DNA from: a virus
Taxonomy: Duplodnaviria; Caudoviricetes
Length of the DNA: 64,000 nt
IMG/VR virus record: IMGVR_UViG_3300043409_003117
Location: 947-64,946 of that record
Reading direction: 5' to 3' (one strand)
Shown here: positions 18,289 to 63,148 of the stretch, piece after piece
Layout: every line of letters starts with the position of its first letter
Numbering within the stretch: the first letter of the stretch is position 1
Program-made: the position numbers and the translations under genes
Notes under the pieces: model-generated
What the model was told of the DNA's origin: nothing
What the model saw: only the letters and a program-made list of their open reading frames with translations
Databases searched by the model: none

Positions 18289-19170
18289 TTGAAAAATTAT
18301 TATGATATATTAGAAGTATCTAAATCAGCTGATCAGGATACAATTAAACAGGCTTATCGAACTCTATCAAAAAAGTTTCATCCAGATAAAAATCCAGATG
18401 GAGAGGCTAAATTTAAGGAGGTATCTGAAGCATATGATACACTAGGTGATGTTACAAAAAGAGCAACTTATGATAATCCACCGCGACAAAGCTATTCAAA
18501 TTTTTCAGGTTTTAATACAACCTTTACTGATTTCTCTTTTGCTCATACTAATTTAGCAAATCTTAATATACAAATAGATCGTAATTTTAAAATTGCTGAA
18601 TTAATGGCAGGAGTTGAGTTTACGGTTAATTATAAAATTTCAAAATCTAATTCCGCAGGGTCAACTGTTGAAGATAAGTCAATTAGAATAAAATTAAATT
18701 TATCAAATCAAGCCTATCCATTTACTCAGGTTGGTGCAGATAATGCAATTATTCTTAAAGTTAGAGGTGGAGGTTCTAGTCAAGTAACAAATAGTTCTGA
18801 TTTTTTCGGAAGACCGATACAGTCTCATGTTAATGGAGACCTAATTATTAGAGTAATAATAGATCTACAGGGTTTATCAATAGATGAAAGCGACTTGGTA
18901 CAACCGGTTGAAATTAGTTTATATGAATCACTATTTAATGATGAACTTGTATTGGAAAATCCATTAGGTAAAAAATACAGAATAAAATCATTTAATTCAA
19001 ATAATTTATCAGATTTAAAGGTTACAATACCCGGCCATGGATTATTTGCACCAAGCGGAGCTACTGGGTCATACGTATTTGATATTAAAATAAAAAAAAT
19101 AGACCTTTCTAAACTTAGCGAATCAGCTTTAGCCAATTTTAAAGAATTACTTAGTGAGTTTGATAAATAA
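18289..19170 (+). CDS. dnaJ: DnaJ-family co-chaperone (J domain, no Zn finger)
   Basis: NYYDILEV...KKFHPDKN...FKEVSEAY; DnaJ-C-like 'GDLIIRV'. Confidence 0.9.
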
Positions 19171-19205: not shown

Positions 19206-19213
19206 TATAAATA
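19206..19213 (+). promoter_or_regulatory. T4-type late promoter TATAAATA
   Basis: Exact T4 late consensus 19 nt before the protease gene. Confidence 0.7.
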
Positions 19214-19232: not shown

Positions 19233-21221
19233 TTGGCTAATACTACTATAACAAATTTAAATACAAAAAGCTTAGGTAAAGATCAAGTTTTTATTATTGA
19301 GAAAAGCAATCAGGCATTAGAAGCAACAACAAATGCAGATGGATCAATTATACTTGAGGGAATATGTGCAGTTTTTGGACAAAAAAATGAAAATAATCGC
19401 GTTTACGAAAAACAGGAGTATTTACCTCACTTAAGTTATCTAAATGAAAAAATAAGTAAAGGTCAACTGTTTGGAGAATTAGATCATCCTCAAAGTTTTG
19501 ATGTTTCTCTTAAAAATGTATCGCATGTAGTTATAGGACTAGCACATGACGAACCTAGCAATAGTATAAAAATTCGGCTTAAAGTATTAGATACACCATG
19601 TGGTCGTATTGCAAAAACTCTAGTTCAGTCAGGCTGTACAATTTCAAGTTCGTCAAGAGCAGCTGGTCAAGTTGGAGATGGTGGAAAGGTTAAGTTGCAA
19701 AAAATATTTACATATGACCTAGTTGCTGAACCAGGTTTTTCACAAGCTTCACTAAGTCAAGTATCTGAAAGTTTAAAGGGTAATTATTCATCACTATTTG
19801 AATCATTAGATACTTTAAAAATGACTTCTATCACAAATAATTTAAAAGATATATCAGAAAGCTTTAGTTTTGAAGATTCTGTTAAAATATACCAAATAAA
19901 TAACTCTGATATTATAAAAACACAACAAAATAACAAAAAGCACATGGCTACTGACTTTGTAACAAAAAATGAAATGAATCAATATTCTCAATTGGTTAAG
20001 AATAAATTTCAAAAACTTCAAGAGAATATTTCAAAGAATAATACTAAATTAAGTTCATTAAATGAAAATTCTGAAGATCCTCAAGTAACTGGTAAGTTAG
20101 TTGAATACGTTAATTATTTAGCAGGCGAAATGGAGAAAATGGTTGGATATACTAACTATTTGTCAACTATGTTAAATAAAGGAATTGACTATACTGAACA
20201 TGTTGCTGAAAAGGTTAATAATGTAATTGACTATAGCGACTATTTAGCTGAAAAAGTAGAAAAGAATATTGGATATTCTGACTATTTAGGCGAAAAAGTT
20301 AATCAGTCTATTAATTATGGTGAGTATATTGCAGAGAATGTTGAAAAGACAATTGCCTATACTAATTATCTTGCTGAGAACGTAGATAAAGGAATTCAAT
20401 ACTCTGAATACGTTGCTGAAAGTGCAGAAAAAGGAATTAAATATTCTAACTACCTTGCAGAAAACTTAGATGCAGCAATTAACTACTCTAATTATTTAGG
20501 AGAAAATTTACAGAAAGGAATAATGTATTCTGAATATATTGCTGAAACTATGAATGAAAAAATCACATCTAATGTTGATGTTAAAGCTCGTAGATTATTA
20601 TCAGACGTTAAAAAATTAAATGAAGGAGCAAATTATCAAGTTGATGAAACTTCTGGAGTTGATGATTTAACCAGTGCAGTTGATGGAATATTAACTCATA
20701 TTAAATCTAATTCAGCAAATACAGTTTTAGAGAATAAGTATCCATTTCTTAAATTGTTAAGCGAATCTAATAAACAAAAATTCTATGGTTTAGATCAACC
20801 AACTAAGGCTTCAATTGTTGAAACTATGAGAGGCGCTATCTTCTTTACTGAAGGAGAAGTTATTAATATCATGGAAGCAGTATTAAATAAGCAAACTGAA
20901 AATACTCCAAGCTATATTAAATTTATGCCTGAAAAATATAAATCTATAGTTGAAAGTATGAATGAGGCTGAATTAAATTGGATTTCGGCACAGGCTTCAA
21001 GCCTAGTAGTAAATACTCAATATCAAGCAAAAGCATTCTGGGATTCTCGCGATCTTCGCCCGATTACAGAAAGAATTGCTCAAGAATCAATTAATACATC
21101 AAACAATATTAACGAAAGCCACGGTAAAGAAGGTTTTGTTTCGTTAAAACAAGTAAATCAAAGTCTAAGAGGTTACTCAGATAACTACTTAGCTGCTCTA
21201 CAAAGAAGAGCACAAAATTAA
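19233..21221 (+). CDS. gp21: prohead core protease (gp21-like) fused to scaffold (gp22-like)
   Basis: NENNRVY, GELDHP, VSHVV, LDTPCGRIAKTL, SSRAAG, YDLVAEPGF; C-terminal 14-aa YxxYLAE repeats; directly upstream of the MCP. Confidence 0.9.
   Translation: MANTTITNLNTKSLGKDQVFIIEKSNQALEATTNADGSIILEGICAVFGQKNENNRVYEKQEYLPHLSYLNEKISKGQLFGELDHPQSFDVSLKNVSHVVIGLAHDEPSNSIKIRLKVLDTPCGRIAKTLVQSGCTISSSSRAAGQVGDGGKVKLQKIFTYDLVAEPGFSQASLSQVSESLKGNYSSLFESLDTLKMTSITNNLKDISESFSFEDSVKIYQINNSDIIKTQQNNKKHMATDFVTKNEMNQYSQLVKNKFQKLQENISKNNTKLSSLNENSEDPQVTGKLVEYVNYLAGEMEKMVGYTNYLSTMLNKGIDYTEHVAEKVNNVIDYSDYLAEKVEKNIGYSDYLGEKVNQSINYGEYIAENVEKTIAYTNYLAENVDKGIQYSEYVAESAEKGIKYSNYLAENLDAAINYSNYLGENLQKGIMYSEYIAETMNEKITSNVDVKARRLLSDVKKLNEGANYQVDETSGVDDLTSAVDGILTHIKSNSANTVLENKYPFLKLLSESNKQKFYGLDQPTKASIVETMRGAIFFTEGEVINIMEAVLNKQTENTPSYIKFMPEKYKSIVESMNEAELNWISAQASSLVVNTQYQAKAFWDSRDLRPITERIAQESINTSNNINESHGKEGFVSLKQVNQSLRGYSDNYLAALQRRAQN
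20106..20558 (+). repeat. 42-bp/14-aa coiled-coil repeat (~11 copies of YSxYLAExVxKxIx)
   Basis: YSDYLAEKVEKNIG / YSDYLGEKVNQSIN / YTNYLAENVDKGIQ etc. Confidence 0.9.
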
Positions 21222-21242: not shown

Positions 21243-22967
21243 ATGGCAACAAAAATTTTCAAAAGATTGAACGATGCTTCAATCAAAGAAACTTGGACCC
21301 CAGTATTAGAAGGTTATGGTGCAAACGTTTCAGCTCGCCCTTGGTTAGTTGACTACGCTCACAACCATGCAATTTTCGAAAATGCAGGTTCATTAAACGA
21401 AGCTTTAAACACAACAGGCTCAGCTCCAGGTTTGTTTTTACAACAACCAGGTTCTATCTCTTCAATCGGTGCAATTAGTTCTCCAACAAGTTCTATGACT
21501 CCTTTTACTGCAGGTTCTAAAAATGGTTACGGTGCTTCTGTATCTGGTTCTGGTGATAAATTCCCAAGCCTTTTACCAGTAGCAATTCAAGTAGCTGCTA
21601 AAACTGTTGGTTTCGACCTAGTTGGTGTAGTTCCGATGGATTCTCCAGTAGGTTTCTTACCTTATTTGGATTATGTATACCAAGGTGGTAATACTGATAC
21701 TCAGTACGAACCATTCTTAGTTAAGTTATCAAGTGCTCTTAATACAGCAATTGTAGCTGGAGAATATATCCAAGCAGAAACAGACGCTGCAAGTGGCGTT
21801 GGTGCATTTAAATTTCAATTCGTTGGAAAATCTCGTATAGACGGTTTACCAATACTTAAAGTAGTAACTGGAGCAACTGATTCAGTTAATACAACTACTG
21901 TAGCTACTGCGGTAACTGCATTAGATGACGCAACTCATAGTGGTAACCGTACGGATACTAGTAATAGTGCATTAGGTACAACTGCTCGTCCATGGTTAGG
22001 TTTTGGTGGAGCTGCAGGTATGACTGTTAGTTTAGTATCTGCATTAGAAAATCATATTACTGGTTTTACTTCAGTAAGTGATACTGACTATGCTGCTACT
22101 TCATTCCAAGGTCCTTTCTTAAACTCAAGTGAAAATCTTGAAATGGAAGGTATGACTCGTGCAACTGCTGAAAGTTCTAAATTCCGTCAAATGGGTCTTC
22201 GTATGTTTACGAAATTCATTGAGGCAAAAGGAGATCAAGTTTCTATTTCTGCAACAGTTGAGCAAATCCAAGATCTTAACCGAGTTTGGAATTTCGACGT
22301 AATGTCAATGTTAGAAAACGTTGCTGTTAACGAATTAGCTCAATCTATTAACAAAAAATTAACTGATAGAGTTTTATCGTTAGGTCAAACTCATGCTACT
22401 GCAGTTAATTCAGTTGAAGGTTCTGGAATTACCACTTTAAACTTAACAGTTGGAACTGGTTTTGAGAATATCTCAACTTTACAACGTCGTGTTGTTACTA
22501 AAATCCTTGAAATGGCTAACTTGATTTATCATAGAGGTCGTTTCGGTGCAGGTACATACATCGTAACAAATGGCCGTGTTGCTTCTGCTTTAGCAGATGT
22601 TGCTGGTTATACTTTCGCTCCGTTCAATAACGATTTACCTTCTGGTGCTGGTCAATTATACCCTGCTGGAAAAGTTCACGGTTTAACTGTGTATGTAGAT
22701 CCAAACTTGAAATTTAGCGATAACCGTATCCATATCGGCCGTAAAGGTGCAGATGAGGAGCCAGGTGTTAAATTCTTACCTTATATCATGGCAGAGAGTC
22801 TTCAAACAATTGCAGAGGGAACTTTCTCTCCAAAAATTGGTATGAAATCTCGTTATGCAATCACAGAAGCTGGATGGCATCCAGAAACTCAGTATATCAC
22901 TATGAACGTAACAGGTCTTGGTGTATTAACTGGTTCAGTTGCTCCATCTACTGGTTACTCTGCATAA
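21243..22967 (+). CDS. gp23: major capsid protein (gp23-like)
   Basis: DLVGVVPMDSPVG, TVEQIQDL, G.VHGLTVYVDP, PYI...TFSPKIGMKSRYA. Confidence 0.95.
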   Translation: MATKIFKRLNDASIKETWTPVLEGYGANVSARPWLVDYAHNHAIFENAGSLNEALNTTGSAPGLFLQQPGSISSIGAISSPTSSMTPFTAGSKNGYGASVSGSGDKFPSLLPVAIQVAAKTVGFDLVGVVPMDSPVGFLPYLDYVYQGGNTDTQYEPFLVKLSSALNTAIVAGEYIQAETDAASGVGAFKFQFVGKSRIDGLPILKVVTGATDSVNTTTVATAVTALDDATHSGNRTDTSNSALGTTARPWLGFGGAAGMTVSLVSALENHITGFTSVSDTDYAATSFQGPFLNSSENLEMEGMTRATAESSKFRQMGLRMFTKFIEAKGDQVSISATVEQIQDLNRVWNFDVMSMLENVAVNELAQSINKKLTDRVLSLGQTHATAVNSVEGSGITTLNLTVGTGFENISTLQRRVVTKILEMANLIYHRGRFGAGTYIVTNGRVASALADVAGYTFAPFNNDLPSGAGQLYPAGKVHGLTVYVDPNLKFSDNRIHIGRKGADEEPGVKFLPYIMAESLQTIAEGTFSPKIGMKSRYAITEAGWHPETQYITMNVTGLGVLTGSVAPSTGYSA

Positions 22968-23089: not shown

Positions 23090-23449
23090 ATGAAATCAGT
23101 ACTAAGCTATGAGCAATACCTGTTTGAAAAAAAATCAAATAGCGATCTTGCAACCGGTACGCCTACAAAAGGTAAATCTGTTACTAAACAGGTAAATAAC
23201 AATTTAACTGCAGGTACACCAAAAGGAAAATCTGTTAAAAAATCAGTTAATTCAAGTACTTCAAGTTTACCAAAAGGTAAAGGATCTGTTCCAGGTAAAT
23301 CAGTTAAGACCAATACTTCAAGTTTACCAAAAGGTAAAGGATCTGTTCCTGGTAAAAACGTTGACTCTAAATTTGCAAAGATAACAGTTAAAGGAAGTTC
23401 AGTTAATAGGAAAGTTGATTCAGCAATGGCAAAGTTGCCAAGAAAATAA
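23090..23449 (+). CDS. Lys/Ser-rich repetitive basic protein, putative head-internal DNA-binding protein
   Basis: MKSVLSYEQYLFE leader, then 17-19-aa PKGK repeats (57-bp duplication at 23257/23314). Confidence 0.65.
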   Translation: MKSVLSYEQYLFEKKSNSDLATGTPTKGKSVTKQVNNNLTAGTPKGKSVKKSVNSSTSSLPKGKGSVPGKSVKTNTSSLPKGKGSVPGKNVDSKFAKITVKGSSVNRKVDSAMAKLPRK

Positions 23450-49971: not shown

Positions 49972-52900
49972 TTAAAGAATATGAGGATATACAGCCGGAT
50001 TAATTGGTGGAATTCCTGGAAATATACCTGGAGACTTTGAACCAAATATTAAAGATCCAGTAGCATTCATTGAAAATTTCCAAGCCAATTCATCGAGAAA
50101 AATAGTAAATAATGGATTTTTATGAGTAAGCCTTTCCCATGGAGGAAGATCATCACTATTAAGTATTGGGTGAAATAGTCTAGCTGCCGTAACTGAAGAA
50201 AATGTAATAGGTGGAGCAAACACACATAGGCTAAGTGATGCAATCCAGGCAACCGGCGATAGGAAAGGCTCTGCCTGTTCGAGTGCAAATAGAGCACCAA
50301 GTTTAATAATATTGGTTAAAAGCGGATTTGGAATCATCATTTTATATCCAGGTGGAATTTCAGAGTCAATTTTCATTATTGCAAGTTTGATCAAGTTAAT
50401 TTGAAGAATACCTGCCTCTACTATATTATACGAAAATGTTTTTAAGGCCTTTGCAATATTAGCAATTACATCAACAATTGTTGCAATTGGAATAAGAATA
50501 TCTTCAAATACCAAAGTAATAAGTTCCCTAACTACTTCAATTAGATCGGCCGCGGTTAACAAATATAAGTATTCAGAAATATCTATTGGAAATAATGGTA
50601 ATTTAGGTAAACTAAACCTCTTACCTGTTTTTGAAATTACAGTTAGAACTACCCTTTTAAGTATTGGATTTCCATTTGTATCTACCGCAATTGTAGAATT
50701 TGAACCGGCTACTCCAACTATTTCAAGAGAAACGGTTGAGTCTTTTCCGCAAGCGGTAGTAAGAATTTGAGTTATTAAGTTTTTATCTACACTAGTGGTT
50801 GCCGTAATGGTTTGGGTTGAATTTGAACCTCCACCTACCGTAAATGTATCAGAGGTTATGGTAAGCGAGCCTAATTTATTAGCCCGTAATAATAATCTTA
50901 AAATTGCTTCAATTAGAGCGGCTAAGCCTAGTCCAACTAGTGCTTTGATTAATGGGTCTAATGGAATAACAATTGGAACAAGTGGGGGATGTAATGGATT
51001 TACTGATTTTAAAACAGATAATGATGTTACCATTGGTACTACTGACTGTATAATATATTGTAAAAAACCTGCAATATTAGGTAATGGAATTGGTGGAATC
51101 ATTAATATTAATTGCTCAATTATAATTGGAATAATTGCACTGGCTAAATCATTTGGGATTTGAGAAAGTCCCAATAGGTCCATAATACTTTCAGCAGTTA
51201 ATGAATTTATTAATGCATTAAACAGTTCGTAAATAAGAGCAAGAGCAATTGCTAAGTCTGGAGAAACACCTGGAAATAATTCAGTTGGTTTAACTTCACA
51301 GCACTTTTTATTTAGGTCAAATATATTTATTGCAGGTATACTAAGTAGAGCAACGGCAGTTGCTGATAATATTTTTTTAATTGTTTCTTGCCTAGCGGCT
51401 TTAGCCCTAAGTATTTCAGCTTTTTCAGCTTCACTAACGTCCTCATCGGTGTCATGGCCAACATCTTCTCCCTTTATATAGTCTAATATGCTTTTAAAAA
51501 AATCCTTTAATAAATCTTTAAATTCTTTAATGCCTTGCGCAGTATTAAGGTTAAATGATTGGTATTTTTGTAATAGATCTTTTACTTTTTTAGTTTCTAG
51601 AATTATTGCAATTAGTGTAATAATTTGTTCCTGTAGTGTTGATATCAGCGGTATAGCTGATCCCAGTGCAATTAACTCAATAATATCTTCAATACACTTA
51701 AGTACCTCAGGCAAACCTGGATTATGTTTAGATGCATCTTTTGGAAATTGTAAAATTCCAAATTTCATTTTTTTATCGTAAAAGTTAGTAAAATCTGCAA
51801 TTGTTGCATCAATTTGTTGTGGAATAGTTAGCGGATTTGCATTACGTGCAGCCTTTCTATCCTTTCTCTTTTTTTCTAAATTAGTTTCATTAGAGGCATC
51901 GGCTTCCTGTTCTCCTCTATTTTGTCTAACTCGGTCTTTAAGTGCAGAAATTGCATTAATTGGTATATCACCAATTTTATTAAGTTGTTTATTAATATTA
52001 CTTTGAAGCTTAACAATATCTCTAGTAAATTCACCTCCGCCATCTGCAATTAGCATGGCTAACATCATTTCAGCTTCACTTAATTTATCTAAAAATGGAA
52101 TTCTACCGGCGGCTATATCCTCAGCAATTTGAGCTAGTCTAGCTGCTTTGGCTGCAGCCGCAACCAGAGCTAAAGGAGAACTTAATGCACCTTTTATTAC
52201 CTGACCTTTATATGGATTCAATATATTTATTCCTAATGGGTTTCTGGAGTCTGGACCATTATCTAATTCATATCCAAGAACAAGCGGTTTATTAGTAGCT
52301 GGGTCACTATATAACCAAGTTGGATTGGTTGATGCTGCTAAATATTTATTTCCATCTGGTCCAAAATACAAAACATATATAGAAGGTATAGGTATAGGAA
52401 ATGGAACTATTTTAATTTCATCATTGTTTATATCAATTGTTTTTAGTTGGCTTACAGCTCCGGTAATACCTGCAAGTGATATAGGTTGTATAGGTTGTAA
52501 AGGAGTTCCCAATAACAATGATTGAGCAATTGAATTAGCAGTTGATAGAGCATCAATTTCAACTTGTTTGGTTGCGGATACTACGGCAGCAATTGGCTCT
52601 ATTACTGATTTTTTGCAAGTAATTGGTAATCCTAGTATTATTACAATTGTACCTAATGGTGTAGGTATTGAAATTAATGGTTTATAGAATTGAGGTAACG
52701 GTAGTGTAAGTATACCTCCAGGAATAGGTATAAATGTATTAATTGGATAATATCTAAATCCTAAATTTGCTGGAGGAGGTCCACTTAGGTCTGGGAATGG
52801 AAGTATTGCTACTTTATTTAAACTTTTTGTAAATTCTTTCCAATAACACTGTGATGTAATATCTGGAAGGCCTGAATCATTTCCATCAAGCGTTCTAATA

Positions 52901-55128
52901 ATAAATGGGTCCTTTCCTAATTGAAGTCTAGCCGTTACTTCACAATTTTCAGCGGGTTTTTTAATAGAAGCAGCTGCCGCTTTAAAACACGGAATAGCTA
53001 AAATTTTATCAGTTAAAATGGTTGGGTCTAGTGAATTTTCTTTAATTATTACCTCTAAATTTGCTAATTCAGTTTTGCAATCGGCTAGATTATTAGTAAT
53101 TAATAAATTTGATTGTAAATAATACCCGTATACAGTAGATAGAGTAGGGGATTCATTAAACTCTTTAATTCCTTGTGAATATTGAATATTAGAGGTTTGT
53201 GAATAGGTAACTGGTCTATAAAATTTTAAATATGAACTGTTAACTTTTTGTCTAAATATTGTTGCAACTTCTTTTTTTGCAAATTCTTTAATTATATTAG
53301 TAAATTCTAAAATTACAGATGGATAGGTTTGTTCACGCTCTATTTTAATTCTAGCGGCTGACTCTGCACCAAAGTCTTCATAAAATTTAGAATACGTTTC
53401 AATATTTGAAATATATAAAGTTCGTGTATTTGATGGGCTGTCATCATCTATCTTATTATTAATTTTTTCTTTAATAGTACCAGCCTCTAGCGAATCTTTA
53501 AATGAAGCGTCAATATTGATAGGACTAAGAGAAAGCCCGCGTTCTACTAGCGTAAATAAGTTATTAATTGGATCGGCTAATCGATTATATAGACCATTAT
53601 AGTATTCACCAGCAGCGCCATTATATAGTAAACCAGGTATACTTGCATAGTCGGCTCTTGGTTTTAAAAAAGGTAAATCATCTGGATCATAATATGAACC
53701 TGAGTCTTCAGTATCAGTAATTCTATCATTGGGGTCATCAGTGTCACTAAATTTTCTAATTACATAAACATTATCAAATATATTAGTAGTTAAATACGGG
53801 CTGTTTTTAATAGGAATAATAGTGTCAGGCGTTATATCTACTACTGGCTCTATTAACTTACCGTCTGATCCTTTAGCATTTATATAGCCAATTGATCCAT
53901 CTTCTAACTCAACTGGCAGTTTAATTTTTACAAAGTTACCATCAATAATTCTAGGAACTAATTTTAAATTAAATATTTCAATATTGTTAGGGATAATTTG
54001 AGTGGTTAATCCTAATGAGATTTGACCAGATATTTTTAAAAATGCTTCGGATAGTTCTGCATAAATAGTTCGGTCGGTTATGTCAATAATATCAATTTCA
54101 CTTAATATATTAGATTGAGCAACCAGTGCCTCATTTTCAAAATTTAGTTTTTCACGATATGCATATGCTAATTTTTTAAGTAATGTGATCCATGTATTTA
54201 GCTCAGGCAACTCAGTATTAAAATATTGTATATATTTAGTAGGTTCACTAATTATATAGTATTTGAGGTCTGAGTAATCAGGGTCGTCTGCTGTTACATT
54301 AATATTTAATAGAGTAAAGTTTTTATTGGTAGCATCGGCAGTATTAAATAGATTAAGAGTTGGACTAATTATTACTTCTAAATTGTCTGAAACTAAATTA
54401 TTTGAAATTAGATTATTAATTGCCTCATCAACAATAGTGTCATTTGGGTTTTTTAAAATTTCATAAGTAGAAATAGCAGTACCAGAGTCAATGATGGTTG
54501 AAGTTGGATATAGATTAGATAAACGGGCAATTCTAAAAATAATAGTTTTAATAAGAGATTCCTGTCTGTCTTTTTGGCTGTCATTTGGGGCTTGAGAAAA
54601 TTGATTGCCAAAATTAGTAGGTTTATATTTTACAAACGCATCTCTGGTATTTGAAATTTTAGCTGCAATGCTTTTAGTAATTTGATCAATTTCAATTTCA
54701 ATAGTATCAACTTCATCTTCCCAATACCTATATTGCGAGGCAAGAGGTTCAGTTATATCAACTATTGAATTAAAAAAATCAACCCTTTCCTGATTGTATA
54801 TTTTAATAATATCAAGGTTATCAATAAGCTCTTCAACTTTGGACTTAACAATTGCAGCTTTTATACTGGTTGGAATTTTTTTAGTTTCCTCTGCAATTAT
54901 CTCTTTAACTTTTTCAGTCGCGGCTGGAATACAACCTGTTTTAGAAAGTGTATCCTTTTCAATTTGTTCAAGAATTTTAGCGGTTGGGTCAGTAATTAAA
55001 ATATCAGGCTCAGCAACAGTCTGAATACAGGTTTTTGCCCTAACTAAATCAGCCTCAGTAAACATAATACTTGAGACCGCCTCACATTTAATCTGATTAA
55101 TTATAGCCTTAAATGTTAATTCTGCCAT
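49972..55128 (-). CDS. large hypothetical protein (1718 aa) with hydrophobic Pro-rich C-terminal half
   Basis: Long uninterrupted ORF; no recognised catalytic motif. Confidence 0.7.
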   Translation of the reverse strand: MAELTFKAIINQIKCEAVSSIMFTEADLVRAKTCIQTVAEPDILITDPTAKILEQIEKDTLSKTGCIPAATEKVKEIIAEETKKIPTSIKAAIVKSKVEELIDNLDIIKIYNQERVDFFNSIVDITEPLASQYRYWEDEVDTIEIEIDQITKSIAAKISNTRDAFVKYKPTNFGNQFSQAPNDSQKDRQESLIKTIIFRIARLSNLYPTSTIIDSGTAISTYEILKNPNDTIVDEAINNLISNNLVSDNLEVIISPTLNLFNTADATNKNFTLLNINVTADDPDYSDLKYYIISEPTKYIQYFNTELPELNTWITLLKKLAYAYREKLNFENEALVAQSNILSEIDIIDITDRTIYAELSEAFLKISGQISLGLTTQIIPNNIEIFNLKLVPRIIDGNFVKIKLPVELEDGSIGYINAKGSDGKLIEPVVDITPDTIIPIKNSPYLTTNIFDNVYVIRKFSDTDDPNDRITDTEDSGSYYDPDDLPFLKPRADYASIPGLLYNGAAGEYYNGLYNRLADPINNLFTLVERGLSLSPINIDASFKDSLEAGTIKEKINNKIDDDSPSNTRTLYISNIETYSKFYEDFGAESAARIKIEREQTYPSVILEFTNIIKEFAKKEVATIFRQKVNSSYLKFYRPVTYSQTSNIQYSQGIKEFNESPTLSTVYGYYLQSNLLITNNLADCKTELANLEVIIKENSLDPTILTDKILAIPCFKAAAASIKKPAENCEVTARLQLGKDPFIIRTLDGNDSGLPDITSQCYWKEFTKSLNKVAILPFPDLSGPPPANLGFRYYPINTFIPIPGGILTLPLPQFYKPLISIPTPLGTIVIILGLPITCKKSVIEPIAAVVSATKQVEIDALSTANSIAQSLLLGTPLQPIQPISLAGITGAVSQLKTIDINNDEIKIVPFPIPIPSIYVLYFGPDGNKYLAASTNPTWLYSDPATNKPLVLGYELDNGPDSRNPLGINILNPYKGQVIKGALSSPLALVAAAAKAARLAQIAEDIAAGRIPFLDKLSEAEMMLAMLIADGGGEFTRDIVKLQSNINKQLNKIGDIPINAISALKDRVRQNRGEQEADASNETNLEKKRKDRKAARNANPLTIPQQIDATIADFTNFYDKKMKFGILQFPKDASKHNPGLPEVLKCIEDIIELIALGSAIPLISTLQEQIITLIAIILETKKVKDLLQKYQSFNLNTAQGIKEFKDLLKDFFKSILDYIKGEDVGHDTDEDVSEAEKAEILRAKAARQETIKKILSATAVALLSIPAINIFDLNKKCCEVKPTELFPGVSPDLAIALALIYELFNALINSLTAESIMDLLGLSQIPNDLASAIIPIIIEQLILMIPPIPLPNIAGFLQYIIQSVVPMVTSLSVLKSVNPLHPPLVPIVIPLDPLIKALVGLGLAALIEAILRLLLRANKLGSLTITSDTFTVGGGSNSTQTITATTSVDKNLITQILTTACGKDSTVSLEIVGVAGSNSTIAVDTNGNPILKRVVLTVISKTGKRFSLPKLPLFPIDISEYLYLLTAADLIEVVRELITLVFEDILIPIATIVDVIANIAKALKTFSYNIVEAGILQINLIKLAIMKIDSEIPPGYKMMIPNPLLTNIIKLGALFALEQAEPFLSPVAWIASLSLCVFAPPITFSSVTAARLFHPILNSDDLPPWERLTHKNPLFTIFLDELAWKFSMNATGSLIFGSKSPGIFPGIPPINPAVYPHIL

Positions 55129-55240: not shown

Positions 55241-57575
<2,335 letters not shown>

Positions 57576-59044: not shown

Positions 59045-62000
59045 ATGAATATTGATAATCTAGTATTTTTTGATAAAAATGGTGAATCTTATAACTTCGG
59101 CCGATCCAGTTCTGGTAATTGGGAAGGCGCCGACTATTTTTTACCAATATCACTAGAACTATATGATTGCTCCAATATTTTTATTTTAGAAAATACAAAT
59201 GGAGTATATACCTTTCCTAAAATGGAATCAGGTTCAAGCTTTGAAGTAAAGTGGAAAACTGCAAATAATAAAACTAATTTATTTTTATTTAATGTATTGG
59301 TTGAAGGAACTGGTACTGCTGCCTATAACTATCTTGAAAAACAGGAGTATATTACAATTAACCATAGTGATTTTGGACAGGCTGGAACCCTTGCTTTAAC
59401 CTATCCATTGCAGTTAAATATTGCATTTACTCCATCTGACGAAATTGCATACGCTAGAGTTTTACAAATTTATTATAAAACAACAACAGACTCAACCCTA
59501 GTATTAGAGCTTACAGTTTATGGAGAAGGCGAGGGCGAAGACGAGAGACTTCGGATATGGTTAGCTAACTTTGGCATTAAGTTTAATCGACAAGATGCTC
59601 TTTTATTAAAAGACTATGATTTAAAAGAAGCACTGGCAGATTATAAAGAGCTTAATGCGGTTAGAAAATTAATACTGGTAAACCGTGATCAAATCTATCC
59701 ATATATTGGAACCTATAAAGGTTTATTAAATATACTTAGCTTAATGGGTTATCGTGACGTATTAAGAGTAAAGGAGTATTGGCGAGATATTGATCCAAAC
59801 TCTTCGTATTATAATAAATTTGCAATGGTTGACTTTACTGATTTATTAGATAGCACCGAAGACACTACCTTTGATTTAGTTGATCAAAATAATCAAATAA
59901 AAACCGGCGGTAAATTTGAAAAAACTGAATTTCTTGCGTTAACCTATCAATTTTCAAAAGCTGGAGATACATATGACGATGATGGCTTACCTAATGTTAT
60001 TACAACTACTGATTTTACAGTAAATGAAATATTTTTTAAATTACATGGAGTTGTTGTAAAATTAAAAGATGAAATCATACCAATTAATGTAGTAATCAAG
60101 GATATTATAGGGGAATTTATCTATTTTGAAAAATTTAATATTAGATATTGGATAGATGAAACAACAATTGAATCCTTTAGCCTTAGTGATGAATATCAAA
60201 TTAATATAGTTGAACCGGCTGACTATGTTTCAAGCTATAACTATACACTTGACACTCCTGTAATTTCTAAAAAAATTAAATTATCAAGTCCACTTAATCC
60301 AGCAATTTTAGTAGGTCAATATATTCTACCGGAAGCGAGTAGTCAATATGGGCTACTTAAATTTCAATTTGTTAGAAAATCAAAAATAGACGGTTTACCA
60401 ATACTTAAAGTATTAACTAGTAATACAAATACAACTGGTTTATTTAACGATTATCAAGATCTACAAACGATAGCTGGTGCCGTAGCTGCATTAGATAATG
60501 TACAACATGACGGTACTCGTATTGATACTGGTTCTGATGCAACAGGTTCGATTACGCAGCCGTGGTTAGGTTTTGGTGGAATTAACGGTATGACTGCTAC
60601 TTTAATAGCTGATTCAGAACAAAATATTGTAGATACCATTCAAAATGCAAATTCTAACTATTTAAAAATTAGGGATCTTAAACCTCTTTATCGTAAAGCA
60701 AATGGAGTTTCAATATTTCCAGAAACATCATTTAATTTAGGACTAATTGACCCATATGACGATAGTCAATTTTATTCTGTTGATAAAAAGGATACCTTAA
60801 TCCAAACAATATCAGACTACTATTCAACGCTTAAATCATTTATCTTTGAATATCCAAATAGCGTAAGTCCGTTAGATCAAGGCGATGATACTTCAGATAA
60901 AATAGGGTGTCCAATTGTACTAGAGGCATATGTTCCAGATTTAACGCTACAACAGTTAGATGGAATACAATTTATTGATTTTATAACGGTTGCTGCAACC
61001 ACTTCATCGAGTACGAATACAATTGGTACCGGCCTTAAATATTTTAGTTGTGCAACCATACAGCCATTTGCAGTAGGTGACTATATTAAAGTATATCAAT
61101 CAGCTAATTATACTAATTATATGATAGGCCGAATTACTGAAATAAACCCGCCTAGTATGTCGGGTAATACAATATTAATAGATGTATATTCTTATAATGG
61201 AGAAGGTACACTCACCGGCTGGACCGTGCAGTTAATTGACAGACACTTTACAATTAACAATCTTAAATATAAAAATGTTTATGAAATTGAATGGATAATA
61301 ACCGGTCCTCAAGAGTATAGATTTGAATGGAGAACTAGTACTCTTGGTACTAGTAAAATTCCTCACATATTACCACATACTGGAGAATATACAATTGAGG
61401 TTAGAGCATATGATATGTCAGGGGCAGTCTCTAACCAATTTAGAAAAATTACAGTTTCTCCAGACCAACCTATTATTCAAGTGTTTACTAAAATATCTGA
61501 TAAATTTAGATATGATTTTAAGAACCTAGATAATGTAACAATTGGAGACTTAGCAGATAGCCCATTATATTATCCATATCTAAATGTAATAAATTCAGAA
61601 ATATCTTCAATTTCAAATCACTATTTAGATTGGAATACATACTCTAATTATTATGGAGTAGGTGCAAACCATAATGATATTAAACTTTCAACTACTGGAA
61701 ATTCATTAATTCCCTATTCTCAATCAACTGAAACCATTAAGAATAGCTGGGGAACAGGTTCAGCCAATGGGCAGGCCACCATTTCTAATTATTTAACTGC
61801 AAGTCTTGGTGATCTATACTATGTTAACTTTAGTAATTTTGGATTGACCGCTGACCAATTAGATGGATTCTATATTACACTAAGAGGCGAAGATTATCAA
61901 TATAATTTAAACTCAAATTTAGTAGCAATTAAATTTGGTGGATTTGATGAAATTGACTTAACTGCACTCGCTAATCCAACAATTGAAGAGGTATTAAATT

Positions 62001-63148
62001 ATTTACAAAATACTTCTGCACCAGGATTATCTAACTATTCATATCAAATAATTGAAACAACGTTTGGGCCTAGTGCACTTCCTCTTAGTCGAATAAAAGC
62101 AACTGCTACCTATCAGGATCCACAAAATCATTCAATTATTAAATTAATATCTATTGTAACCGGATTAGATTCAAGCCTGAATAAATGGACTCCAAGTTCT
62201 GCTAATTTAACAATATCATCAACTGATCCATTAATATATGGCCCATCTAGTTTACCTCAAACTGTATATGGCCCATCTAGTGTACCAGTACCTGCAATAA
62301 CTGATGGAGAATATACATTAACTGACTTTGGCGGTTCTGAAACTCTATATGGTAATACATATTTAGCAGTAGGCGACCGATTAAGAATTCAAAATGATAA
62401 TGGCGACTATATAGAAGGAACTATTACTCAAATGACAGTTGGCCAAACTGTTATTATAATTGATGAAGCTCACGGAGCAGGTATCCTATCTGATTTTAAC
62501 CTATTTTTAATTGATACAGTATATACGTTTAATAAACCAGTATCAGTATTTAATCAAACTGAAATTGATAAAATTCAACAGAATTTATTACAAACAAATT
62601 TAAGAATTGATGAAGATCTATTATTTTTAGACTGTCCATTTGATGATTGCCTACAGACCTTAAACCCATATACTCCAGCTGCTGCCTCTAATATTAATTA
62701 TTGGATTGATAAAGGCTTTGTTAAATATGATAATTCAGAAACCAGCCCATCGTCTATTCCAGCAAGTCAAACTGGTTATTTACCATCAAATTATGATGAA
62801 AATTCATTTAATTTAAGTAATATTAAATTAACATATGGTTCATTAATTGTTCCTTTACATCATCCTATTTTTATTACTATTGCAAACTTAGTTTCAAATA
62901 TTGAAACTGTATGGACTTTAAAATTAAATAATGAACTTATTGTAAAAGTTATTTCAACATCTTATTTTATATGGAGATTTACTAAACCTGGTACTTATAC
63001 ACTTGACATTGACTCAGTTGATACTAGAGGAAATCACTCAATTTCAAATTCTAGTATTATAATATCAACCCTAGTTACCCCAAATGAGTATAAAAATTAT
63101 ATTGAAAAACAATTAAACATTCGAAAGTATAAAATAGAGCATAGTTAA
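59045..63148 (+). CDS. large baseplate wedge-like virion protein (gp7-like) with an inserted capsid-derived domain and PKD/Ig-like modules
   Basis: EDERL...NFG...IGTYKGLLNILSLMGY wedge-type motif; GEYTIEVRAYD and PGTYTLDIDSVD PKD-like strands; GATAAATAAC late motif near 59013. Confidence 0.6.
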   Translation: MNIDNLVFFDKNGESYNFGRSSSGNWEGADYFLPISLELYDCSNIFILENTNGVYTFPKMESGSSFEVKWKTANNKTNLFLFNVLVEGTGTAAYNYLEKQEYITINHSDFGQAGTLALTYPLQLNIAFTPSDEIAYARVLQIYYKTTTDSTLVLELTVYGEGEGEDERLRIWLANFGIKFNRQDALLLKDYDLKEALADYKELNAVRKLILVNRDQIYPYIGTYKGLLNILSLMGYRDVLRVKEYWRDIDPNSSYYNKFAMVDFTDLLDSTEDTTFDLVDQNNQIKTGGKFEKTEFLALTYQFSKAGDTYDDDGLPNVITTTDFTVNEIFFKLHGVVVKLKDEIIPINVVIKDIIGEFIYFEKFNIRYWIDETTIESFSLSDEYQINIVEPADYVSSYNYTLDTPVISKKIKLSSPLNPAILVGQYILPEASSQYGLLKFQFVRKSKIDGLPILKVLTSNTNTTGLFNDYQDLQTIAGAVAALDNVQHDGTRIDTGSDATGSITQPWLGFGGINGMTATLIADSEQNIVDTIQNANSNYLKIRDLKPLYRKANGVSIFPETSFNLGLIDPYDDSQFYSVDKKDTLIQTISDYYSTLKSFIFEYPNSVSPLDQGDDTSDKIGCPIVLEAYVPDLTLQQLDGIQFIDFITVAATTSSSTNTIGTGLKYFSCATIQPFAVGDYIKVYQSANYTNYMIGRITEINPPSMSGNTILIDVYSYNGEGTLTGWTVQLIDRHFTINNLKYKNVYEIEWIITGPQEYRFEWRTSTLGTSKIPHILPHTGEYTIEVRAYDMSGAVSNQFRKITVSPDQPIIQVFTKISDKFRYDFKNLDNVTIGDLADSPLYYPYLNVINSEISSISNHYLDWNTYSNYYGVGANHNDIKLSTTGNSLIPYSQSTETIKNSWGTGSANGQATISNYLTASLGDLYYVNFSNFGLTADQLDGFYITLRGEDYQYNLNSNLVAIKFGGFDEIDLTALANPTIEEVLNYLQNTSAPGLSNYSYQIIETTFGPSALPLSRIKATATYQDPQNHSIIKLISIVTGLDSSLNKWTPSSANLTISSTDPLIYGPSSLPQTVYGPSSVPVPAITDGEYTLTDFGGSETLYGNTYLAVGDRLRIQNDNGDYIEGTITQMTVGQTVIIIDEAHGAGILSDFNLFLIDTVYTFNKPVSVFNQTEIDKIQQNLLQTNLRIDEDLLFLDCPFDDCLQTLNPYTPAAASNINYWIDKGFVKYDNSETSPSSIPASQTGYLPSNYDENSFNLSNIKLTYGSLIVPLHHPIFITIANLVSNIETVWTLKLNNELIVKVISTSYFIWRFTKPGTYTLDIDSVDTRGNHSISNSSIIISTLVTPNEYKNYIEKQLNIRKYKIEHS
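60275..60607 (+). repeat. dispersed copy of MCP segment 21720-22037
   Basis: Exact 27-mer ATAGACGGTTTACCAATACTTAAAGTA (21837/60386) and 18-mer TGGTTAGGTTTTGGTGGA (21993/60563); collinear protein similarity. Confidence 0.92.

Follow-up and report, generated by a model that had tools for sequence, protein, structure and literature searches.

In the major capsid proteins (MCPs) of the T4 superfamily, gp23 and gp24 of T4 among them, the E-loop carries an insertion (I) domain. The available text of PMC9546572 places linker 1 of this domain at gp23 residues 132-160 and describes the domain as a surface protrusion that rests on the neighbouring subunit in T4, and the available text of PMC4621102 describes it as the most variable part of the MCP in PhiM9. 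Here we describe a domain of this type that stands twice in the DNA of one phage: once in the MCP and once, as a diverged copy, inside a 1367-aa protein of the virion module. The stretch that we analysed, called the window below, is 64,000 nucleotides long and is the IMG/VR viral contig IMGVR_UViG_3300043409_003117 (Duplodnaviria; Caudoviricetes; 64,946 bp, CheckV completeness 25%) without its first 946 bases. Its I domain occupies the same position in the MCP as that of T4, and it is likewise the most variable region of the protein and a putative surface protrusion. However, it has no detectable sequence similarity to the T4 I domain itself and, unlike the latter, it also sits outside the MCP, in a protein of non-capsid fold.

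Domain shuffling among phage structural proteins is already known. Mosaic receptor-binding and tail-fibre cassettes are exchanged among related phages by homologous recombination, and they display the same polymorphism in presence and in alleles that departs from the flank phylogeny, with hypervariable blocks set in conserved flanks; in our case, by contrast, one of the two hypervariable loci lies inside the MCP gene. A second likeness is offered by the immunoglobulin (Ig)-like accessory domains of phage structural proteins, reportedly treated by Fraser and colleagues in 2006: together with PKD and BIG2 domains they are said to be non-essential surface domains on the head as well as the tail proteins of the same virion, apparently shuffled, for which weak adhesion has been proposed. 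The captured segment differs from them in three respects: it is not a catalogued Ig-like, PKD or BIG2 domain (residues 404-528 of the 1367-aa protein have no Pfam match at E<=0.01), its donor is an integral E-loop of the MCP fold, and its source is the own MCP rather than a pool of mobile modules. What sets the present case apart is that the donor is integral to an essential HK97-fold capsid protein and that both the original and the copy are hypervariable at the population level. A full-text search of the literature returned no account of an I domain outside an MCP or of population-level I-domain hypervariability in a capsid gene; subscription journals and bioRxiv supplements lay outside its scope.

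A capsid insertion domain within a large virion-module protein

The MCP of the window belongs to the Gp23-type family: it matches Pfam PF07068 with E 2.7e-40 and 139.4 bits (cut-off 24.4), the major head protein family PHROG 138, and the chains of T4 gp23 in a phmmer search (E 1.6e-12). Residues 411-539 of the 1367-aa open reading frame (ORF), called the big ORF below, align to MCP residues 160-283 in BLASTP with 62 identities over 131 positions (47%, E 2e-26), collinearly and with two gaps, and at the nucleotide level the blocks are 67.5% identical over 357 aligned bases. The contig carries exactly two copies of the segment, and the reading frame of the big ORF is intact. The copies have two exact DNA matches, of 27 and 18 nt, in common; each word occurs twice in the window and never in 100 shuffles, and the paired occurrences lie about 38.55 kb apart. 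An earlier reading of the letters alone, here the original prediction, had proposed a collinear alignment with about half of the residues identical, an intact frame and the two exact matches at a distance of 38.5 kb, and on all of these points it was correct.

The limits of the insertion follow from the comparison of filled and empty alleles of the same gene. Empty alleles read YNYTLD[V/A]NNTIVDT, where the window reads YNYTLDT-(cassette)-NIVDT, and a contig of sequencing run X4 carries the empty allele with position 60252 joined to position 60629 and 16 other letters between them (labels in X denote sequencing runs, in L related loci, in P proteins or cluster representatives and in G relative genomes; WIN is the window). 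Therefore, the cassette has taken the place of five codons and corresponds to MCP residues T153-I272 (Table 1). The original prediction had put the block at 60275-60607; the location stands, and the extent is slightly wider. The residues V/A-N-N-T of the empty alleles are absent from the filled ones, so the empty alleles are not simple deletions. The empty site gave no match in a pattern search of viral contigs. As for the junctions, later divergence of the sequences makes the possible microhomology on the left weak evidence, and with 4 nt on the left and none on the right it does not suffice to name a mechanism.

The place of the segment within the capsid protein was read from the alignment to T4 gp23, in which MCP residues 90-146 pair with gp23 residues 68-131 and MCP residues 308-540 with gp23 residues 243-479. 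Residues 153-272 fall into the gap between these blocks, and since the linkers and the I domain of gp23 occupy the same gap, the segment takes the E-loop position of a T4-type I domain. The alignment thus bears out the landmarks that had been proposed from T4, namely that the segment lies between the PM.SP.G and MG...IEAK strands, where gp23 has its I domain. Among the 58 unique MCPs of 80 related loci this stretch shows by far the highest variability of sequence and length. Taken together, the alignments support the captured segment as the variable and probably surface-exposed insertion domain of the MCP.

Table 1. Positions of the captured domain, its donor and related features in the window
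Feature	Position	Strand	Basis
Virion-module protein, 1367 aa, recipient of the insertion, gp7-like gene-order position, phrog_28177	59045..63148	+	ORF call, PHROG, synteny
Captured I-domain cassette (T404-I528, 125 aa), in place of 5 codons of the empty allele	60254..60628	+	empty-site protein and DNA alignment, X4 contig, BLASTP
Left junction (LD/T)	60247..60256	+	possible 4-nt microhomology, TGAT in empty allele and MCP (alignment)
Right junction (NI/VDT)	60623..60631	+	no convincing microhomology
Exact match of 27 nt, codons for IDGLPILKV	60386..60412 = MCP 21837-21863	+	exact-match count
Exact match of 18 nt within PWLGFGG	60563..60580 = MCP 21993-22010	+	exact-match count
Major capsid protein, gp23-like, 574 aa, donor gene	21243..22967	+	Pfam PF07068 Gp23, PHROG 138, T4 gp23 phmmer
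MCP I domain, the greater part of linker 1 and the beginning of linker 2 (T153-I272), donor segment	21699..22058	+	alignment to T4 gp23; hypervariable across MCPs

Both junctions are bridged by assembled contigs: 17.4 kb without differences from run X1 (possibly the source sample), 1040 nt with 45 differences from X2, 605 nt with 35 differences from X4 and a 1934-nt contig with 55 differences from X5, so that three other studies contribute to the bridging. The two copies, 67.5% identical in their nucleotides, also differ too much to be mis-joined. Besides the protein of the window, 10 full-length proteins and additional fragments from ENA and Logan assemblies hold filled alleles, with lengths of 1367, 1385 and 1397 aa. 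Near-identical DNA was found in 24 run rows from 20 studies, 20 of them labelled as freshwater or lake metagenome, three as 'metagenome' only and one without label.

The domain is not a common mobile one. A profile of the two copies gave no match at E<=1e-3 among 1.84 billion representative proteins, and a word-indexed search of longer proteins gave five matches only, which are two filled homologues and three MCPs of the same subclade. When the 58 I-domain types were compared by BLAST with 135 proteins of at least 650 aa, mostly big-ORF homologues, 14 matched, all of one near-identical filled group; the absence from the other 121 supports a lineage-specific insertion, a point that the original prediction had put as a question. 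The domain is single-copy in the near-complete relatives G001 and G010-G013 (the last four share one MCP sequence), and also in G005 and G006. It is absent from all four of the more distant homologues on viral contigs and from the big-ORF homologues of a 252-kb and a 180-kb genome, whose MCPs are 85% and 83% identical to that of the window. Within the 58-MCP alignment, the window-type variant is restricted to a small subclade formed by the window, L009-L012, L018, L019 and P0006.

Donor lineage, probable exchange and divergence of the copies

Synonymous divergence (dS), non-synonymous divergence (dN) and their ratio omega were obtained by Nei-Gojobori counts. The dS of the copy is 0.44 to the MCP of the window, 0.46 to L009, 0.53 to L011 and 0.57 to L010, compared with 1.33, 0.92 and 0.82 to the sister-clade MCPs of L012, L018 and L019. 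All nine codons of the 27-nt match are identical in the copy and in the MCPs of the window, L009 and L011, and synonymous differences occur in L010, L012, L018 and L019. Since dS is lower to the own clade and these codons are common only to WIN, L009 and L011, the donor is, on the evidence of these counts, an MCP of the window's own lineage, as the proposed origin within the genome had implied. The direction was from the MCP to the big ORF, because every MCP of the family has the region and among the large proteins only the 14 of the one near-identical group do. All copies sit at the same site and have the same 7-aa insertion and the same eight fixed differences, of which the majority (such as QYEP to PVIS) lie in what used to be the linker, and this points to one capture event.

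The same duplication had been called fairly recent, and this part does not stand: the copy has a dS of 0.44 to the MCP, at least five diverged alleles exist, and presence or absence does not follow the flank tree. The flanks of the big ORF are under purifying selection (omega 0.05-0.21) and have a dS of 0.13-0.15 to L098; we did not keep a dating of the capture that set these values against the dS of the copy to the MCP, since the I-domain alleles of the MCP are far older than their own flanks and the comparison cannot serve as a clock.

This last property is pronounced in the capsid gene. Outside the I domain the dS of the window MCP to L009, L011 and L010 is 0.01-0.02, and inside it is 0.11, 0.25 and 0.57, respectively; per 60 nt, the MCPs of the window and L010 differ at 0-1 positions outside the domain and at 9-18 inside. 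The I domain of L011 consists of two diverged sub-blocks around a near-identical centre. Fifteen further MCPs (P0151-P0165) have cores that are 98.2-99.8% identical (1-8 differences over 453 residues) and I domains with 5-26 differences over 121 residues, in block-wise combinations. Three of them, P0151, P0152 and P0156, stand for genomes with the empty site; they are cluster members, and their pairing to big-ORF alleles is indirect, by equal length of the longest contig. Judged from these alignments, MCP genes that are otherwise near-clonal receive I-domain alleles of deep divergence by shuffling, which is the same behaviour as that of the cassette.

The cassette itself is polymorphic in presence as well as in sequence. 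Among 18 cluster representatives with identities of 92% or more over residues 1-400, 17 have the empty form (1209-1259 aa) and only P0003 (1385 aa) is filled, and run X4 holds filled and empty alleles together. Full-length filled proteins are 91.7-96.8% identical to that of the window in the flanks and 69-75% in the insert; the alleles of the cassette are 70-88% identical mutually and 47-58% identical to any MCP I domain. In a flank tree from which the insert columns were removed (7 filled, 16 empty and 2 outgroup rows), filled alleles stand in four separate well-supported places, which forces at least four changes, and the nearest neighbour of the window is the empty P0009 with 99% identity. 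Because filled alleles are scattered over the flank tree, we infer a spread by recombination, and the economical reading is that filled and empty alleles would be exchanged by homologous recombination through the flanks. The receiving loop is an indel hotspot, since an unrelated 12-aa insert (NNLISFNG.. type) occupies the cassette site in P0021, P0023 and L097 (L097:2667-2802) and the loop at 60247-60260 is about 25 aa shorter in distant homologues.

Omega between copy and MCP, a comparison that the original prediction had suggested, is 0.95, and between MCP alleles it is 0.14-0.47. At similar dS (0.44 against 0.61), non-synonymous change in the copy exceeds that between MCP alleles about 2.5-fold (dN 0.42 against 0.16), where the codon-level data of the cassette come from the DNA of one of the five alleles. 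Across 8 copies and 17 MCP alleles, 37 of the 113 ungapped columns are invariant and identical, and eight are the fixed differences given above. Columns invariant in the copies are enriched among those invariant in the MCPs (45/27 against 14/27, odds ratio 3.2, p 0.006; Spearman 0.32, p 6e-4), tests that ignore the relatedness among rows and are indicative. This conservation shows the copy to be a domain under constraint, with what is probably the fold-determining core kept and with loops and linkers that changed fast.

A diversity-generating retroelement, with a pair of variable and template repeats (VR/TR), was considered for the copy and rejected, because the mismatches are not confined to adenines, either between copy and MCP or between MCP alleles: the 137 mismatches of the copy are distributed over all bases, 36 of them at MCP adenines and 51 at copy adenines.

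Possible role of the captured domain

The explanation that we prefer begins with an in-frame capture in an ancestor within the MCP lineage of the window, where about 360 nt of the MCP gene took the place of 5 codons in a variable loop prone to indels. The loop belongs to a large, presumably structural protein of the tail or baseplate-fibre gene block, and the insertion would have come about by illegitimate recombination. The inserted piece brought the surface-protruding I domain together with the adjoining linker residues. Afterwards the captured domain retained its fold core, lost linker residues specific to the MCP and gained new loops, ending in the at least five alleles that we see. Filled and empty forms of the gene coexist in freshwater phage populations and would be swapped among near-identical genomes via the conserved flanks. 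Because the I-domain alleles of the MCP shuffle like the cassette, the outer loops of the domain may be under diversity-maintaining selection wherever they are displayed. The copy, presumably exposed on the surface of its recipient protein, would then act as an extra binding module at the tail end, and its most likely use would be to attach the phage weakly and reversibly to variable structures of the host surface. The adhesion-type modules of the big-ORF homologues, described below, fit such a binding module. As a whole, this explanation, in which domain capture is followed by allele exchange and by diversification of an exposed binding module, appears to us moderately probable.

Several points weigh against it. 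Most near relatives are without the insert, which makes the insert dispensable. An omega near 1 is equally expected of a functionless passenger, and the divergence of the alleles could come from old alleles and recombination without positive selection. The AlphaFold2 model of the isolated copy (11-row alignment) is poor, with a mean predicted local distance difference test (pLDDT) of 59.9, and Foldseek found nothing for it in the PDB at E<=1e-3; the best VIA-align Z of this low-confidence model is 4.8, and its top matches in BFVD are T4-like capsid proteins at E 0.05 and 0.12. The place of the 1367-aa protein in the virion is putative, and so are the ligand and the binding role of the copy. 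Finally, the role documented for the T4 I domain in the available text of PMC9546572 is that of an intracapsomer clamp, not of adhesion.

The main rival is that the copy is a tolerated passenger, a harmless accident in a permissive loop that has no function of its own, drifts nearly neutrally and persists only because frameshifts or stops would destroy the essential C-terminal 840 residues. The omega of about 0.95 between copy and MCP, the 17 empty forms among 18 near-identical representatives, and the tolerance of the same loop to 12-aa inserts and to shortening all agree with it. However, drift does not readily account for a site-wise conservation in the copy that mirrors that of the MCP domain, as in the column tests above, nor for the 11-residue motif PWLGFGG..GMT and the motif KS.IDGLPILKV, which vary little or not at all from copy to copy. 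All five alleles have the same new linker residues PVISKKIKLSS, the domain has become longer (by 7 aa, and in three of the five alleles by 10 aa) instead of shrinking through in-frame deletions, and the five diverged alleles are kept in several studies. Thus we regard the passenger as unlikely, though it deserves to be taken seriously.

Another possibility is that the two loci evolve in concert, exchanging sequence by gene conversion, so that the cassette would feed the variation of the capsid surface or the reverse. The original prediction had named such a reservoir. Observations in its favour are that MCP genes which are otherwise identical have I domains pieced together from diverged blocks, that in one patch the copy agrees with the L010 MCP in all but one of 24 nt (23 of 24) and in another has the codons of WIN, L009 and L011, and that copies and MCPs show the same alternative residues (S/L, H/D) at corresponding positions. 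Yet the copies group apart from the MCPs, as their mutual identities show, the longest identical tracts in the window are those of 27 and 18 nt and both lie within conserved motifs, and the word-based search contained no MCP with a cassette-type I domain, the MCP matches being only 43-49% identical. MCP alleles of other phages would also suffice as the source of the mosaic. We therefore consider exchange between the loci quite improbable. Equally speculative is its widest form, in which the I domain would be a variable 'face' that recognises, or is recognised by, something in the host and is kept at two places of the virion, with the loci trading blocks by gene conversion, as a two-locus generator and store of capsid-surface diversity in otherwise clonal jumbo phages.

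The copy could also be a shared docking site, which shows at the tail end a surface known to a capsid-binding partner such as a decoration protein or a fibre, or which itself docks on an MCP subunit as the T4 I domain does on its neighbour. According to the available text of PMC9546572, the T4 I domain binds the neighbouring gp23 subunit through an interface of 460-650 A2. In our alignments, every copy has kept the motifs by which this MCP subclade is marked. Against docking stand the low identity of the copy to any MCP I domain and the concentration of most of the eight fixed differences in the linkers; in a closed capsid, by analogy to T4, the docking sites would already be taken by the I domains of neighbours, and the partner is hypothetical. 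Such docking seems to us very improbable.

An artefact or an independent pickup, that is, an assembly chimera or a widespread mobile domain gained separately by both genes, was raised only as an a priori possibility by the original prediction and is refuted in both variants by the bridged junctions in four runs, the further filled proteins and the profile and word searches that led only to this gene or its MCP clade, so that practically nothing is left of it.

The hypervariability of both the original and the copy points to diversity-maintaining selection on a capsid surface domain. As capsid surfaces are usually treated as structural, the pattern is relevant to adhesion through the capsid and to the way in which hosts recognise capsid proteins. 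The co-occurrence of filled and empty alleles, together with the many I-domain alleles of the MCP in near-identical backgrounds, amounts to a natural experiment on the role of the domain.

The 1367-aa protein and the surrounding genes

By its gp23-like MCP and many other genes, the phage of the window is a relative of jumbo phages (about 250-270 kb). In tblastn no named relative reaches 40% identity, and those that come nearest are uncultured 'huge phages', Lak phages of Prevotella and jumbo phages of Tenacibaculum, Flavobacterium and Chryseobacterium; uncultured viral contigs are closer than any named phage. Relatives thus have their hosts among the Bacteroidota.

The family of the big ORF has 318 homologues at E<=1e-5; conservation is found in the first 390 aa or so and at the C-terminus, and the middle is variable. 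Pfam at E<=0.01 gave for the whole window ORF only sub-threshold PKD and Y_Y_Y matches at residues 760-799. Homologues carry DUF5122 beta-propellers, BNR repeats and PKD-like stretches; in P0118 (1380 aa) and P0120 (1865 aa), the variable middle holds a DUF5122 beta-propeller of seven blades (E 7e-92) or repeats of the BNR/Asp-box type. In a homologue at L005 (L005:723-4028, residues 515-597; also in L004 and L006), a module matches the solved 'capsid decoration protein' 9nx3_A with E 4.4e-7 (profile E 1e-4); our search found no paper on structure 9nx3. This decoration-protein-like module is, at the level of sequence similarity, a second link between the big-ORF family and capsid-surface modules.

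The original prediction had called the protein baseplate-wedge-like, a label that stays tentative. In the window, the big ORF follows genes for a RuvC-like resolvase and a gp55-like late sigma factor. Downstream, the 253-kb relative G001 has proteins of 382, 746, 1211, 2038 and 802 aa (fibre- or collagen-like) before a gp14-like neck gene, and the window's next gene is 59% identical to the 382-aa protein, which has no similarity to T4 gp8 in BLASTP. The homologue in PTm1 stands 1.3 kb after an annotated baseplate wedge subunit. T4 gp7, a baseplate wedge protein, is of a similar size class (1032 aa), and the block that runs in G001 through fibre-like genes to the gp14-like neck gene is a possible further resemblance; in contrast to T4, the gene upstream codes for a gp55-like late sigma factor, not for gp6, and no hidden Markov model (HMM) or profile similarity to gp7 was found. 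In the ESM Atlas the nearest clusters to residues 1-400 carry PF23786 Baseplate_wedge with a score of 0.82, below the lead threshold of 0.9, and residues 528-1367 had no usable match. The PF23786 HMM did not match the contig at E<=10, nor did it match the control genomes; hhalign gave probabilities of 0.3 and 0.1 against T4 gp7 and gp6, and neither Pfam on distant homologues, nor a PDB profile search (32 rows), nor NCBIfam returned a baseplate family. From the gene order and the sub-threshold Atlas lead, a baseplate-wedge-like identity is plausible, with chances that we would put at about even.

The T4 late-promoter motif is TATAAATA. It has 10 matches in the window where 19.6 are expected, and none immediately precedes the big ORF. 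A gene for a phage GroEL-type chaperonin (55241-56812, minus strand; phrog_5725, E 5e-161) lies on the opposite strand, some 2.2 kb upstream of the big ORF, and 49972-55128 on the minus strand holds a 1718-aa ORF that matches no PHROG family at E<=1e-5.

Near the MCP gene, an ORF with a DnaJ-like N-terminus (18289-19170, plus strand; HPD motif by eye, phrog_14336, E 5e-25) stands just upstream of the head block. Directly upstream of the MCP lies a prohead protease gene (19233-21221, plus strand), whose product joins an S80/S77-like N-terminus to a long stretch of degenerate repeats of the NYL.E.V.K.I.Y type, and a late-promoter motif stands near it at 19206-19213. The MCP gene is directly followed by one for a very basic 119-aa repeat protein rich in Lys, Ser and Gly (23090-23449, plus strand), which received no family assignment. 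In the huge-phage records LR756500.1, LR756501.1 and LR756503.1 the MCP query matches two places, and a gp24-like vertex paralogue may be present there.

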